This document shows, piece after piece, positions 4,026 to 34,323 of a DNA stretch of 43,821 nt; the first letter of the stretch is position 1; every line of letters begins with the position of its first letter. The DNA is from Neolecta irregularis DAH-3 (lineage: Eukaryota), in NCBI GenBank assembly GCA_001929475.1, contig LXFE01001036.1, forward strand, positions 1-43,821. The letters run 5' to 3'. Under the pieces are notes generated by a model. That model did no database searches. It was not told the DNA's origin and saw nothing but the letters and a program-made list of their open reading frames with translations. The translations under genes were made by a program, and so were the position numbers.

Positions 4026-5590
4026 ATGACAGCTGTAGTCATTCAAGAGCCTTTTACCGAGTCTACTCTCTTCCCATCTATATATAGCTGACTGAATCAG
4101 GGGAAAAGTTCTTTTGTCAACTACAAAGGGCGATATCGAGATCGAACTGTGGCCGAAACAAGCACCAAAGGCTGTTCGCAATTTTGTTCAGTTGTGTATG
4201 ATCTGCACATAAAATATACTGATCGTAGGTCTCGAAGGATACTACAACAGCACGGTGTTCCATCGGCTTGTCCCGTCATTTATCCTGCAAGGTGGAGATC
4301 CAACAGGAACAGGAACAGGCGGTCAATCAATCTACGACGAACCGTTTCCCGATGAATTTCACTCCCGATTGCGATACTCCCGTCGAGGATTGGTTGGTAT
4401 GGCAAGTTCAGGACCTAGTGACAACGGATCTCAATTTTTCATTACGCTTGCCGCAACCCCGGAGCTCCAAGGGAAGAATACGCTATTTGGAAGAGTCATG
4501 GGAGATACAATTTTCAATATAGTGAAAATGGGAGAAGCAGATGTTGAGGGAGAGCGGCCTCTTTATCCTGTGAGGATCATCAAGTCTGAAGTGCTCTGGA
4601 ACCCATTTGAGGATATTGTACCCAGGATTTCCGAGCCTTTGCCCGTTGTGAAAGAAAAGGGTACTAAGAAAAAGGGAAAGAAGTGCGTTTGTACATGTGG
4701 GCTTGCTTACTTTTAGAAATAAAGCCCTCTTGAGCTTTGAAGACGAAACAGAGAAGGATGTTGTCACAAAGAAAATAGTCAGTATGCATGATGTTGGAGA
4801 TGACCCTCGGCTAGTCAAGGAAACCGCCCATCGAGAACAGAAGGAACGGCCTCACAATATAAACGAAGTCGCAAAATTGAAACCAGAATCTAAGGAAACT
4901 ACAGTGCCAGACCCGCCCAAATCAGAGAAAATGGAGATTATCGAGGTCGAATCAAACAAATCACCGCCACCGAAACGGAAGCAGAAACTGCCAGGAATAA
5001 ATGACTTGCAAGCTCAGATAGATGCTATGAAGAATAGTATCAGGAGTCTAGACGATCGAACGGTTGCCCCATCGGATTTGCACAAAGAAAAGAAGAAGTC
5101 AAGTTATCTCGATCTTGAACGCGAGAAATATAAGTCAGGCAAAGCAATCATTGGCAGGAAAAGAAAGAAACCTGGGAATGAGGCTGAAATTCTATCTGCC
5201 CTCGAAAGTTTCCGATCAAAACTTCAGGCTCCTTCAAGCGAATCTTCAGCGACCCCCGAAATCTCGAAATTTGGAGAAGTTTGCCCGTTACATCTTGTCC
5301 CAGGTTGTATGTCTTGTTTCGATCGATTAGGGGAGACCAATGATAACGAAGATTTGTCAGAGTTCACAGCCAGCCGCTCCTGGTTAAATCATTCATTAAC
5401 ATTCGGAAAAGATTATCTCGGTAAGGATGGAACGTATAAAATGCAAAGGGAAATGGAAAATTACGAAGTAATTGATCCTCGAGAACGTAAAGCGGAGGCG
5501 CGGAGGAAAGACAAGGAGTCAAGGAAGAGCGACGGGATTAGCAGGAGCTTTCGAAAGGAAGGGGGATGGAATGGCCGGAAAAATGATTGA
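4026..5590 (+). CDS. CWC27: Spliceosome-associated cyclophilin Cwc27, 3 introns
   Basis: EPFTEGKVLLSTTKGDIEIELWPKQAPKAVRNF, FHRLVPSFILQGGDPTGTGTGG, EFHSRLRYSRRGLVGMA, NPFEDIVPR, NKALLSF and C-terminal YEVIDPRE. Introns include 4196-4228 and 4683-4716. Confidence 0.93.
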
Positions 5591-12343: not shown

Positions 12344-13822
12344 ATGACGACTGTCGAGAAGATCAAGGAAATAGAGACGGAGATGGCTCGGACCCAGAAA
12401 AACAAGGCCTCTTCTTCGAATAATTGTGTTCTTATATTTTAGGCTACCTCGTTCCATCTGGGTCAACTCAAGGCCAAACTTGCAAAGCTAAAACGAGAGC
12501 TTTTGACCCCATCCACTGGAGGCGGGGGAGGGACTGGTGGTGTGATCTACCCTTTAAATTAAACTTGTCCTCAGATTGATAGTTGGCTTCGATGTCGCAA
12601 GAACCGGCGTCGCGTCTGTTGGGTTCATCGGATTTCCTTCAGTTGGTAAAAGCACGCTGATGAGTAAACTCACTGGAACTCACAGCGAAGTCGCTGATTA
12701 CGAATGTAAGGTTTGGTATGTGATGAAACTGATTGTCAAAAGTCACTACATTGACAACCGTACCCGGAGTTTTAACTTATAAAGGAGCAAAAATTCAGGT
12801 TCGAGAATCGCTCAGAGGGGTTTACTGATCAAGATTCTTGATCTTCCAGGGATCATTGAGAAAGCAGCCGAGGGAAAAGGGTAAAACACAGACCTGTGCA
12901 CAGTTGATACCAATAGTCGAGGTCGTCAAGTAATTGCTGTTGCACGAACCTGTCGACTCATTTTTATTATACTGGACGTTTTGAAACCCCTAACACATCG
13001 GGCAATTATCGAGAGCGAGCTTGACAATTTTGGAATTCGTCTCAACAAGGAACCGCCCGATATCACTATCAAGAGAAAAGAAAAAGGAGGATTGAATGTC
13101 ATGAAAACCGTTGCCCTTACGAAAATTTCGGACGAAGAGCTCAGAGCCGTCTTTAGCGAATATCGTATCAATAGTGCTGACGTAACCATCAAGTTCGATG
13201 CAACAATCGACGACGTGATTGATGTTATTGAGGGAAATAGGGTTCGTTGTGAATTCTCAAGTCTTCTGAAAGTCTATAGGTCTATATTCCCGCTATCTAC
13301 GTGCTCAACAAGATTGACCAGATTTCTATTGAGGAATTGGATCTCATTTACCGAATTCCACATGCAGTACCAGTTTCTGCAAATCATGTAAACCAAATGT
13401 CAGGTGATGGATAATTGATCAGTCAGGAGTGGAACTTTGACGAACTACTTGAAAGAATGTAAGGCGATACCTCGTCATATGTTAACATGTATAGGTGGAC
13501 TTATCTGAACCTGACAAGGGTTTACACGAAACCGAAAGGAAGACTTCCAGATTATGACGACCCGGTAATCCTACGGCAGGACGCGTGTACTGTGGAAGAT
13601 TTTGTACATCACTTGGACTAGAAATATCGGCTGATAATTCAGTGTAATCATATCCACAAATCCATCATGAAGCAATTTAAGCATGCCTATGTGTGGGGGT
13701 CGAGCGTGAAGCACAATCCCCAAAGGGTATCTAGGAATCACATTTTGGCTGACGAGGACGTAGTTACGAGTATTGGATCTTTAATTTTGGTTGTACTAAT
13801 CGGCATAGTTGTCAAGAAATAA
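12344..13822 (+). CDS. RBG1: DRG1-family ribosome-binding GTPase, 10 introns
   Basis: [53 protein letters not shown] tail [13 protein letters not shown]...DEDVVTIVKK*. Confidence 0.96.
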
Positions 13823-14077
13823 AAGAGAAAGAATTAGATTCTCATGAATATATCACTTTGCAAATTTTCATCTTTGAAGATTTATCAACTTTCTTGGACT
13901 ATTACAACTTGAAGTAGATTTACATTGAATGAAGAATTAGATTTACACAAAAGAAACTATTCATTATTGAATTTGTGCAAACAGTCTCCTGAGCTATTTC
14001 TCTATAACCCCAAGCACAAATGTCAGTGCCAAAGCTTTCACGTACTATTTGTGTTAGACGTCTCTCCACCAAGAAAA

Positions 14078-16798
14078 ATGAGCACGACCAAAATATCACC
14101 TCGATACGCGCATACTCCCGGTCAAACACGCTTGGCATATACTCCTGACGGAAAGTCATTAATCACGGTTGGATCAGACCAGCTAATTCGGAAATTTACT
14201 ATTGGATCAGACGACGAGCCCTTATCTATTGAACAGCACGAGGATGCCATCACTGGAATAGCGACTTCGGTATAATTTCGACTTGAATGTATATTCTGAG
14301 CAATTTCAGAAAGATCATTTTGCAACTTGTTCGGAGGATGCAACCGTCAATTTATTTTCTTTGCACGATGATGATAATATCAGTGTGAGAGAAAACACAG
14401 TTCTCTTGACAAGATGCACTCTACCAATCCGAGATGTAGCATTCAGCCCAGACGGAGCTTGGGTTGCTGTAGCTAGCGAGTACAATTCTTCTCTTCTGGT
14501 CGATCTGAACCTTTAGCGAAACAGTCGTTAAGATCATTAATACTTCAGATATGCTTCGAGTTATACAATTGAGAAATCAGTCAAGGTCCATCAAACATGT
14601 GACTTTTCATCCTGCTGGAACAGTAGTTTGTGCTTCTTGTACGGATGGAATTATCTATATTTATTCCTTGAGCACTGATGAACCGACGTTACTAAAAAAG
14701 TTGGATGGAGTTATACCGAGAGTCGAACCTGAGTCGGATATATCTTGTAAAGCGTTATGGCATCCGGATGGAAGAGCATTCGCTTGTCCTACAAACACTC
14801 GAGGCGCGATTTTCAATAGGGTTGATTGACCTATTAGATATCGTGGTTATTTCGCGGGGTGACTGGGAGCGCCAAAGAGTCTTCAAGTCTGGTCATAATG
14901 GCGACATTACGGATATTGCATGGTCTCCTAATGGTGCATACTTGGCGAGTGCCGCAACAGACGGCAAAGTCGTGATCTGGCAGTGCAGAGGGCAAACCAT
15001 TGTCACGACGTGGGTTGTTCTTGATATAGCCATCTAATAATCAGATTGAATTATCGTGATATCATCTGTCTCGCTTGGCATCCGTCGCAGAATGTTATAT
15101 CCTTTACATCGAATCAAGGTCACCTATATACGATACCCCAGGTTCTTCAACCGAACCACACTCCTTTGCCATATGGAAGAGCGGTTCATCCCTGTCCTCT
15201 TTTGGAAGATCAAGAAGATGTTACACTGCTGGAACCGAGAGATTCTCCAATGCAGGTGGACGATGTTCATGTGCCTGATATGGAACTGGGCAATGTTTCA
15301 GACAGTTGGATTGAGGATGACGACGGAGCCGGTTATATCCCCGATCTCTCTACCCGAAAACGACATGCAACCGATTTTGACGCACCGCAATTTAAAAGAC
15401 GAGCATATGGATCCGTACAAGCAAATATACACGAGTCATTTCAACCTGGAAGCACGCCGTGGAGAGGAAGCCGGAGATATCTGGCGCTGAATTTGACTGG
15501 AGTTGTTTGGTCCGTCGACCAAGAAACTCATAACACTATCACGGTTGAATTCTTCGATACCGGTACTCATCGTGGCTACCATTTCACAGACCATTTCAAA
15601 TATGACAAAGCTTGCCTAGATACGTACGGGGCTGTATATTCCAGTCCTGCAATCGGGGAGAGCGGTGCGATTATCCACTATCGACCCAATGAAACCTGGA
15701 CCGAGAAGCAAGATTGGCAAGTGGTATTGCCTCGAGGCGAGGAAATCACTTGTATTCAATTTTATTCTGAAATTCGCTAACTATTAGCGTTGGCGTTGAG
15801 TCATACCAACATCGCTGCTTGTACTTCAAAGGGATATGCGAGAGTGTATACTTTGAGTGGTGTTCCCGTAAGGATATATCGGCAGAAGCATGTGCCTGTT
15901 GTTGTTTGTGCTGCCTGGAAAAACTATATTATGGTGGTTGGAAACGGTCCACAGAAAGCTGACGGTTTGTAACAATTTGAATCAGTCTAAAGTAATAGGG
16001 ACAACCGAGCTTATATATAATATCGAAGATGTCAGTGCTGATATTACATGTCAATCAAATGATATTGTTGCAATACCTAGTGGCGGTGAACTGAAATCAT
16101 TGTTTTTCTCGGAGAATGGTGTATTTTCAGCGCTATTTATATAATTTTTGACATGTAGGATCCTATGATATACGACTCGGACGGTATTCTTTTAGTGCTC
16201 TGGCGTTGGCGCACTCCTGGATACGCTAAATGGGTTCCACTACTGGATACTAATTCAATGGCGCGGAGAATAAACAAAGAAGAATCCTATTGGCCAGTAG
16301 CTGTCGCTCAAGAAAAATTCCATTGTATCATTTTGAAGGTACATATTTTGTGCAATACGCTGTTAACTCTAGGGCGGCGATAAATATCCATACTTTCCTC
16401 GACCATTGTTTTCAGAATTTGATCTCTGCGTACCAACAAGTGAAAGATCAGATAATCCTTCCTCGGCCATAGCTCTTGAGGAAGGTTTTGTGCGCAATTA
16501 TACTTTGTATTCACTTGGCGAAGATGCCTTACAGTCACGGGCTCGCAGCATCGAGCTTACCGATATGGATGTCGTCAAAAAAGAAGTTGCGATTGATAAA
16601 ATTCTTTTACAACTGATAAATTTGGCCACACGAGAAGATCGGGCGGCCAGAGCATTAGATCTCACAACATTGTTGAGAAAAGAACGTAGCGTCGATTTGG
16701 CTATCAAGATTGCGGAACGGAATGATAAAACACTTCTCGCTGAACGGATGGTGGAGTACAGGGATGGATTGCGTGAACCAGATATTGAGGAACTTTGA
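14078..16798 (+). CDS. CTF4: Replisome hub Ctf4/Mcl1 (WD40 + SepB), 8 introns
   Basis: RYAHTPG start, WD repeats, SepB motifs FQPGSTPW, RYLALN, WVPLLD, ESYWPV, GGDKYPYFPRP. Confidence 0.93.
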
Positions 16799-32559: not shown

Positions 32560-33600
32560 TTATATCTTCTTCGCTCTAGGTACAGCTTGCGCAAATGACC
32601 GTGCGCCCAAGTACAATTTTTCCTTGAACATGAACAGAAATGCTGCCGTGACAACGCTTTGTAGCAATTTTGCTTGCACGCCTTTGTAGAGGCCGGCGAC
32701 ACCTTCCTGATCGACAACTTTGGTTATGGAAGTGTAGAGAGAATCATATCTTTCGGAGAGATTTGAAGACTGGCGCATCTGCATTCGAGCTTTTACAGTA
32801 ACTATATGTCAATACGTCTGGCCGAGAATGTCATTTACTGTATGGGTATGTCAGACCAGTTGCCACCAACTTTCCAATAGCTCCAAGCCAGAAGGCATCT
32901 CGTGGAGTCAATGGGCGTTTCCTAGTAAGGATAATTTTGAGCTGTTCAAAGACTGTGTATTGAATGATAGGATTTGATACCTACTGTCAGTATTCACAAT
33001 AATAATGGAATTATACCAAAATAAGTGCAGGCCCAATACCAGACCACAGAGCTGAAATGCCGTCTTTTTGTATGATATCTTTAAACATATCTAAAGTGCT
33101 TCTCGCTTTTCGTTTGGCACTTTCTGTGGCTGAAAGTGTTTCACTGGCCTCCATTGTATCCCTTCTTGCTGTCATACGTGTGTTCGCAACCCATATGGGG
33201 TTTGTAATCAGAACTGTAAGAGAGCCTTCAATGAGCATATATCTCATAGAAAATGTATACCAGCAACTGCACCGGCAATTATGCTTTCTTTGGCAGATAA
33301 AGCATGCACCCTTTTATTTTTGAGGGCAGCAGTCGCATAGAGCTTTTTGACCCATTCATAGAAGAAATAGTAAATCCCGTTTGTCAACCCAATTCCAAAA
33401 AGACCGCTTTTCATGCCACGGTAGAGACCATAAACCCCATCATCTTTTAGGATTTTTATGATTGCTTCATATACAGAAGTGTCTTTGCGTCTCGACTCAA
33501 CTTGAGCCCGTGTGGAAACTGATACCAGTGGGTATGTTAGAGCAAGAGCAGCCATCCCACCACCGGCACCCGAAAGGGCATGAACCAGGTTGTCAGACAT
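32560..33600 (-). CDS. PMP47: Peroxisomal carrier of the mitochondrial carrier family (PMP47/PMP34/SLC25A17), 3 introns
   Basis: MSDNLVHALSGAGGG, TYPL, TNPIWVANTRM, GPALILV/SNPIIQY, TYPY/ITVK, GLYKG..KLLQSV..AAFLF..KE. Confidence 0.88.
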
Positions 33601-33749
33601 AATTGAATAGCAGAAAGAAAAGAAAGATGGCGTAGTATATGTCACTATATCGAAAACAGATGACAGGGGACAGGAGAAGTTGGGCCTTGGACCAAGGATA
33701 TACGTGTGGAGTAACGTTTCACGTGATGTCTCCGCCTCATCTCCACACT

Positions 33750-34323
33750 ATGTCTAAGGAAGAAATCGATAAATTAACAAGAGAAGAGTTATTTGAAAAG
33801 TATAAAACTTATAACTGGGATGAAGACCAGGACTTTCAGGGAAGGGTTTCAAAGCTCTATGGCTGATTATATTAGGAAGGTATTGCTAAGCTAAGAAATG
33901 AAACCCCTCAGACCAATTATGAATACCAAGACTTAAAAGAAAGAGCGAAGCTCTACTTCTTCTCGAGGCATTATACTATGACATAACCTTTGGTGACATT
34001 TGAAGGAAGTATGATTCAATTGACCTTCGGGAATACCAGATATGGCTCAATGGAAACCAATACTTTGTGAATGGTGATTCGCGAGTCCGAGAAGCAGAAC
34101 TTCGCCAACAAGCTTCAGCTAGGGAAGAAAATGCTCAATATCCAAAGTCTTTCACAGAGATTGTGGAAATGATACAAAGCGGGAAACCAATCCCAGGTTT
34201 GTCTTACCTTGTGGATATAAACTGATCTGAGGCATTCGAGAAATTCCGGATAAGGTGAATAATCAGTCCTCCTCTTTACCAACCCTCCGATCGCCACGAA
34301 AGCCATGGGAAGAGACGGTCTGA
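33750..34323 (+). CDS. PEX39: Pex39 (YJR012C/C6orf226-like) PTS2-import factor, 3 introns; only exon 1 appears in the ORF track
   Basis: YNWDEDQDFQ/EGIAKL, KERAKLYFFSR/K...IDLREYQIW, YPKSFTEIVEMIQSGKPIP/GIREIPD and terminal RKPWE motif. Confidence 0.83.

Follow-up and report, generated by a model that had tools for sequence, protein, structure and literature searches.

Which bases begin the first intron of PEX39 in Neolecta irregularis is the question raised by this locus. In the window (the whole 43,821-nt stretch of DNA analysed), read-through of exon 1 meets two in-frame stop codons, TGA (33864-66) and TAG (33873-75), so some removal is obligatory, and the removal that the first-pass annotation held probable would start with GG instead of GT. 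The coordinates and terminal letters that it gave for this intron are exact (Table 1), and its reading has the best support: homology, the length of the intron, the distance to the branch and complementarity to U1 all favour it, as do GG and GA introns fixed by homology elsewhere in the genome. We conclude that PEX39 intron 1 is very probably a constitutive U2-type GG-AG intron of 36 nt, removed by the ordinary major spliceosome.

By sequence, the gene is a member of the PEX39/DUF5572 family, carrying both the KPWE domain (PF17733) and the conserved fungal N-terminal region in a stand-alone form, without fusion to PEX14 or PEX13 domains. The spliced model comprises 162 aa from an ATG at 33726 (another in-frame ATG lies at 33750). 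The two halves of PF17733 score 32.1 and 34.8 bits, the latter in exon 4, against a cut-off of 27; the domain occurs at one locus only in the assembly, and PEX39 is single-copy. The homologues used for scoring carry PF17733 and mostly PF25871 as well, and none of 26 candidates scored when exon 3 served as the query against longer proteins. Head-to-head with PEX39 and about 125 nt away stands a gene on the - strand (window 32560-33600) whose start presumably resembles that of PMP47/ANT1-type peroxisomal carriers; one promoter may serve both peroxisomal genes. In the available text of PMC12339391, PEX39 (DUF5572 / Yjr012c / C6ORF226) binds PEX7 via KPWE and aids PTS2 import, and the proteins described there share with the Neolecta one a length of ~160 aa, a stand-alone architecture, a conserved N-terminal helical region and a C-terminal (R/K)PWE; by analogy, the Neolecta product is a normal 162-aa PEX39 to which PEX7 binding and the PTS2 role would carry over from the family. 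Where it differs from its homologues is in gene structure: intron 1 is, on this comparison of sequences, lineage-specific, as none of 34 homologue loci has an intron at its place, and 46 of 48 loci have none at the place of intron 3.

Table 1. Features of PEX39 (window coordinates) and of the other genes discussed; a slash marks a splice junction
Feature	Location	Strand	Description	Basis or remark
PEX39/DUF5572 gene	33726..34323	+	four exons, three introns	exact ends read from sequence
Exon 1	33726..33839	+	ends W-x5-F-Q	translation; homologues' N-terminal motif matched
Intron 1 (predicted)	33840..33875	+	phase 0, 36 nt, GG-AG, TTTCAG/GGAAGGGT...TTAG/GAAGGT	sequence signals
Weak in-frame GT donor	33846..33851	+	AGG/GTTTCA, 6 nt inside intron 1	3/9 consensus identity
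Branch site (putative)	33863..33867	+	CTGAT, branch A 33866	best under learnt model
Exon 2	33876..33967	+	E-G-I ... R-A-K-L-Y-F-F-S	homologue alignment
Intron 2	33968..34005	+	phase 2, 38 nt, GC-AG, GAG/GCATTA...GAAG/G	position common to other fungi
Exon 3	34006..34196	+	3' end encodes PF17733 positions 1-20	KPWE domain, first half
Intron 3	34197..34231	+	phase 1, 35 nt, GT-AG, GAG acceptor, CAG/GTTTGT...CTGAG/GC
Exon 4	34232..34323	+	RKPWE motif and stop	PF17733 22-47
Arp3 intron			37-nt GA-AG	exons abut at residues 128/129 of 3dwl_A; canonical alternative absent
GH81 glucanase intron			40-nt GG-AG	Pfam 190 to 192, split codon, gapless
RIC1 intron			37-nt GG-AG	Pfam 132 to 133, gapless
Importin-beta intron			38-nt GA-AG	Pfam 58 to 60, split codon
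ADE4 intron			35-nt GG-AG	joins H-R-G-Q to D-A-A-G; downstream exon from D29 of PurF
PMS1 intron			34-nt GG-AG	sole near GT would give 25 nt
PME-1 intron	L185:319-354 (G000:C565)	-	36-nt GA-AG	downstream exon from M157 of human enzyme
ZPR1 intron	L090:1130-1167 (G000:C2531)	-	38-nt TT-AG	keeps C-H-E-N-G; canonical alternative absent
eIF5B-like introns (candidates)	L112:4276-4314, 4400-4433 (G000:C2803)	-	consecutive GG-AG (34 nt) and AT-AG (39 nt, AGG/ATATGC)	low-complexity region
U6 intron	L176:323-372 (G000:C1963)	-	50 nt, GTAAGT...CTGAC...TAG	just past ACAGAGA box
Prp8 pieces	L177:185-1294; L188; L189 (G000:C2538, C4303, C2568)

The signals of intron 1 are those of a U2-type intron bar one base. 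Its donor, CAG/GGAAGG, agrees with CAG/GTAAGT at 7 of 9 positions (the mismatches are +2 and +6), so that U1 complementarity is kept bar +2; the acceptor is TAG, the putative branch A falls at intron base 27 and 10 nt from the 3' end, with CTRAY branch and YAG suitably spaced, and removal restores the frame. U12-type introns have the consensus RTATCCTT at the donor and CCTTAAC at the branch, from which GGAAGGGT and CTGAT both depart, and no U12 snRNA (RF00007) was matched at E<=1 in the assembly, which is incomplete. Canonical-looking options are the GT 6 nt further in, joined either to the same acceptor (33846-33875, 30 nt, placing the branch A at intron base 21) or to a later one (33846-33890, 45 nt), and a GC donor (33854-33895, 42 nt); of these three, the first-pass annotation had named just the 30-nt one. 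On a sequence-only score with the GG prior set at 0.4%, the GG splice obtains 3.76, the 30-nt GT splice 2.49 and the 45-nt GT splice -8.34, so the first leads the second by just 1.3 natural-log units.

Homology favours the same splice. Every AG-ended splice of 24-60 nt that keeps the frame and avoids stop codons, 47 in number, was scored against an 11-sequence HMM of the family, and the GG splice ranks first at 105.6 bits; a TA-donor splice (33858-33890) nearly equals it at 105.5, and the 45-nt and 30-nt GT splices reach 103.0 and 100.9, a small margin of 2.6-4.7 bits. The motif FQxG[LI], given for this family in the first-pass annotation, is borne out in its G: each of nine full-length homologues has the G of F-x-x-G-L as residue four, and so do 16 of 16 distinct genomic sequences (drawn from 34 metagenome loci, out of 48, where the region is readable in one frame; the remaining 14 missed the pattern). 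The GG splice retains the spacing W-x5-F-x-x-G and sets F and R 24 residues apart, as against 22-24 in homologues, 26 with the 30-nt GT splice, 21 with the 45-nt GT splice and 22 with the GC splice, and the invariant G is lost in all three of these.

How far the GT at 33846 can be credited depends on the introns of the genome at large. In a sample of 68 stretches (706,158 bases, 5% of the assembly), a self-trained gene finder limited to GT and GC donors predicted 1,004 introns, 952 GT and 52 GC, although it missed the PEX39 gene entirely. Their modal length is 36-38 nt, which makes the 36 nt of intron 1 the typical size, as the first-pass annotation had it; one is of 28 nt, six are of 31 nt and none of 29-30 nt, while a first, GT-only run had a single 30-nt intron among 932. 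The earlier statement that 30 nt would be shorter than any other intron here also fits, the shortest of the 84 introns predicted in the window being 31 nt. In none of the 366 strong-branch introns (a subset of 511 high-confidence introns) does the branch A come before intron base 25, and the mode is 27-30. Since the finder was started with a length prior that favoured 32-42 nt, these length limits are partly self-fulfilling. An independent check, free of any model, is to count the dinucleotides that precede CTRAY...YAG signals: GT is in excess by ~230 at distances of 33-42 nt (z 9.1), with no excess at 30 or 31 nt. (A first screen for introns by their flanks only gave 39 noisy calls and was discarded.) Donors are very degenerate, the commonest hexamer, GTATGT, accounting for 75 of 952, and these tiny introns seem to be set by length as much as by sequence.

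The GT at 33846 as the donor of a 30-nt intron, adding Gly-Arg to the N-terminal helix motif, draws some support from these figures: GT starts ~94% of introns here, donors equally weak exist (54 of the 952 have a consensus identity of 3/9 or less), and the 31-nt predictions and the lone 30-nt one come close to the length required. It is nevertheless highly improbable. The finder's 1,004 introns leave 29-30 nt empty, no branch among the 366 precedes base 25, GT is not in excess at 30-31 nt, and the Gly-Arg insert, correctly foreseen in the first-pass annotation, would break a motif that is free of indels in 25 homologues. The geometry recurs in PME-1, where a GA-AG intron splits the codon of the catalytic serine (Ser156, which we take to be the nucleophile) and yields G-H-S-M-G-G; an in-frame GT six nucleotides inside, giving 30 nt, would yield G-H-R-K-V-M and wreck the catalytic motif. 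In PEX39 and PME-1, then, a non-GT donor is apparently preferred over a GT six bases nearer the branch; most other GG and GA donors found here are without such a GT neighbour.

Splicing might instead be leaky or mixed, with GG and GT both used, with frequent retention leading to a premature stop, or with a downstream acceptor taken by the 45-nt GT or 42-nt GC splice, in a gene that is weakly expressed or decaying. Human noncanonical donors are enriched 10-fold beside a more used neighbour, GG stands near the bottom of human usage (both in the accessible portion of PMC6280755), and the 45-nt GT splice keeps an open frame with a family score close to the best. The acceptor of that splice, however, scores -5.6 versus +6.6 for the one used with GG, neither it nor the GC splice preserves the invariant Gly, and the remaining gene is intact and single-copy with RKPWE present, so we regard leaky splicing as very unlikely and retain constitutive GG-AG splicing.

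Introns 2 and 3 bear on a further point of the first-pass annotation, that all three PEX39 introns have atypical ends. As a description this stands, the GC-AG ends of intron 2 and the GAG end of intron 3 being exact, but the extra weight placed on the trio does not. Intron 2 occupies a position that, judged from 34 homologue loci (GT in 31, GC in 2, no donor in 1), is old; GC also occurs there in a homologue from another fungus (metagenome loci L157 and L158). The junction of intron 3 is supported by the PF17733 register, which runs 20 then 22 with the codon split. GC donors (52/1,004, 5%) and GAG acceptors (32/1,004, 3%) are ordinary among predicted introns here. With ~9% of introns atypical, chance would give ~0.45 all-atypical triples among the 631 runs of three introns, and 0 were seen; by extrapolation several are expected genome-wide, so that one such gene needs no special explanation and the three odd introns of PEX39 are compatible with chance. 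The window also holds a 22-exon WD40 gene (12344-16798) with three predicted GC donors, whose predictions are unstable near 13725-13810, GG or GA options being chosen in some runs.

A finder extended to allow each single-base variant of GT and AG at 0.3% called 1,174 introns in the sample: 1,093 GT-AG, 61 GC-AG, 4 GG-AG, 2 GA-AG, 2 CT-AG, 1 AT-AG, 1 TT-AG and 10 non-AG. As it too missed the PEX39 gene, its counts for GG (3-4, ~0.3%) and GA (1-2) are lower bounds, with GG at least equal to GA. By count, neither stands above control dinucleotides in the finder's calls on the sample (for GG, 7 calls vs 3-7); the model-free excess is +12 for AG/GC, -1 for AG/GG and -20 for AG/GA; and a GG pattern sought genome-wide is not enriched (93 matches vs 117 for the reversed control). 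The idea that GA and GG donors are common genome-wide, prompted by 51 pattern matches (8 GT, 18 GC, 21 GA, 4 GG; reversed control 64), was rejected on these counts and controls.

The case for GG and GA donors therefore lies in individual genes. Seven besides PEX39, from Arp3 to PME-1 in Table 1, are fixed by homology, although for ADE4 the upstream half-motif H-R-G-Q is presumed, and when the PDB was queried with the upstream exons of PME-1 and ADE4, both of them short, nothing relevant came up. Ten of the 21 GA matches were chosen by hand for inspection: three are supported (importin-beta, PME-1 and what is presumably dynein intermediate chain, to judge by its motif, in which the 36 nt can also be read through), for one a GT upstream is the better explanation, and the remaining six are ambiguous or have no open frame. 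Twenty GG matches, selected by eye from the 93, divide into 10 with an open splice and 10 without, some of the latter possibly owing to short exons; in four of the 20 one or both flanking exons match a domain (ADE4, a Ktr mannosyltransferase, an S-Me-THD protein and eIF2D). Because the patterns that located RIC1, ADE4, PME-1 and importin-beta require AG/G.A, the flanks of these four cannot count as evidence of compensation. Of the five GG donors that came to light with no selection on flanks (PEX39, PMS1, GH81, ECM11-like and eIF5B), four have AG/GGA, which is modest evidence, since the finder matrix favours such flanks.

Departures at +1 appear as well. The TT-AG intron of ZPR1 and the AT-AG intron of a gene that we take to be eIF5B-like both seem obligatory; the TT donor may be real, or a G may have been lost or miscalled in the assembly. 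At the 3' end, the ten non-AG calls have TG, CG, GG, AT or AC ends (L067:6934-6967, L073:5658-5691, L083:909-952 and others); seven have a canonical alternative, and three lie beside a 2-nt exon, Ns or a weak gene. Two of the ten have an alternative 31-nt AG three bases upstream.

These cases frame the main rival to the GG-AG reading, namely that the intron boundaries are right but position 33841 is truly T, through an assembly error or a private allele, making an ordinary GT-AG intron with the donor CAG/GTAAGG. This single change gives a near-perfect donor, and Illumina reads are known to miscall T as G where it follows GG. The odd donors of ZPR1 and eIF5B may themselves be errors, which would imply errors at donors and keeps this explanation alive; moreover, the locus is single-copy in the assembly, and its exact pattern has 0 matches in metagenome contigs. 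An error would nonetheless have to account for the seven other homology-fixed donors, and the GA cases among them lie outside the T-to-G error type. The 6-7 odd donors among ~4,700 invariant bases would need an error rate near 1e-3, and non-AG acceptors of equal quality were not found in the same finder run, the ten called included. Modestly in the same direction, AG/GGA in four of five unselected GG donors compares with AG/GTA in 157 of 952 GT introns. We consider a base error at +2 unlikely, if somewhat less so than the two splicing alternatives above, and a genuine GG donor in PEX39 the better reading.

How such a donor might be recognised is constrained by the splicing machinery. A single U1 gene was found, whose 5' end is canonical, and a single U6 gene, whose ACAGAGA box is canonical too; given these and the missing U12 match, neither a variant snRNA nor the minor spliceosome is indicated, and a variant snRNA was dropped as a mechanism. 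The U6 gene holds an intron (Table 1) that is longer and nearer consensus than the usual introns of this genome; fission yeast U6 has an intron too. A 370-aa piece of Prp8 carries private changes at near-invariant positions (A1431I, Y1432M, P1496Q, F1561M and H1563N in human numbering), and two other small contigs are degenerate Prp8 fragments, one with the same Met at 1432. Altered Prp8 was set aside as a mechanism, as 8 changes in 239 conserved columns is mid-range among 69 comparison sequences.

As the most economical model, we propose that introns of ~37 nt are defined across the intron, and that U2 on the branch site would leave a narrow window for docking of the 5' site, ~25-33 nt upstream. 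Within this window the GG site would win, as all but +2 fits: the exon-end AG could pair with U1 and with U5 loop 1, and the AAG at +3 to +5 with U1 and U6, whereas the internal GT would lose by poor pairing and by a branch too near, at base 21. The +2 base would be tolerated as T, C or, rarely, A or G; because CAG/GGAAG suits U5 and U6 pairing and lies at the right distance, the mismatch could be borne. A steric minimum distance between 5' site and branch, ~50 nt in human extract (available parts of PMC6692369), appears to be ~25 nt in this genome, and pairing of U5 loop 1 with the exon-end AG and of U6 with +3 to +5 is described as mutually compensating in the accessible text of PMC9803359. 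The full proposal is a ruler-type spliceosome in which U1 and U6 are unmodified and branch distance (25-33 nt) largely decides where the 5' cut falls; it would skip GTs that are too close (PEX39, PME-1) and use constitutive GG and GA, perhaps also AT and TT, donors in essential genes at no less than ten times the rate recorded in other fungi. We judge it about evenly balanced between right and wrong. If true, it would constitute a natural ruler-type system with a GU rule loosened at +2 and perhaps at +1 as well.

GG donors are as rare as the first-pass annotation had supposed: humans have 32 in 222,263 introns (0.014%, quoted in PMC5714493) and Ganoderma lingzhi has 20 GG-AG introns (0.022%), beside GC-AG at 1.85% and rare GA-AG introns (available text of PMC11590231). 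PEX39 intron 1 very probably adds one more case to this known, very rare class. 'GG-AG' does not appear in the available part of the survey PMC7072748; the words 'intron', 'splic', 'canonical' and 'donor' are all absent from the accessible main text of the 2017 Neolecta genome paper (PMC5309816); and a literature search confined mostly to papers outside subscription found no ascomycete with raised GG or GA donor use. GG and GA introns in essential genes, alongside canonical snRNAs, offer a compact natural test of 5' site choice without U at +2, with PEX39 intron 1 and the PME-1 intron as ready competition substrates, in each of which a non-GT donor placed at the usual distance faces a GT six bases nearer the branch. 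Gene models limited to GT and GC will mis-splice or truncate such genes.

Among known systems, human reporters and RNA-seq rank donor usage GC > TT > AT > GA > GG > CT in the part of PMC6280755 available. The GA donors of vertebrate FGFR1-3 are alternative sites that need an upstream GT for their use (PMC5714493 and accessible parts of PMC7072748); as in those genes, a non-GY donor lies six nucleotides from a canonical GT in PEX39, but that GT is downstream and weak, not upstream and required. With Ganoderma and human, Neolecta shares the GG-AG class, already recorded in a fungus, and differs from Ganoderma in frequency, with ~0.3% GG, about ten times the Ganoderma rate, and ~5% GC among predicted introns. 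The copepod Eurytemora affinis has 31 GA and 5 GG donors among 297 introns (12%) of long genes; AG precedes these donors, position +3 is A, and the U1 is canonical (PMC5714493). A share of that order (~10%) contrasts with 6 of 1,174 predicted introns in Neolecta, without statistical excess (GG 3-4 and GA 1-2, as lower bounds), and the Neolecta introns are of ~37 nt; as in the copepod, these are probably constitutive introns required for the full-length protein, with AG before the donor, A at +3 and a canonical U1, and they are missed by automatic gene models.
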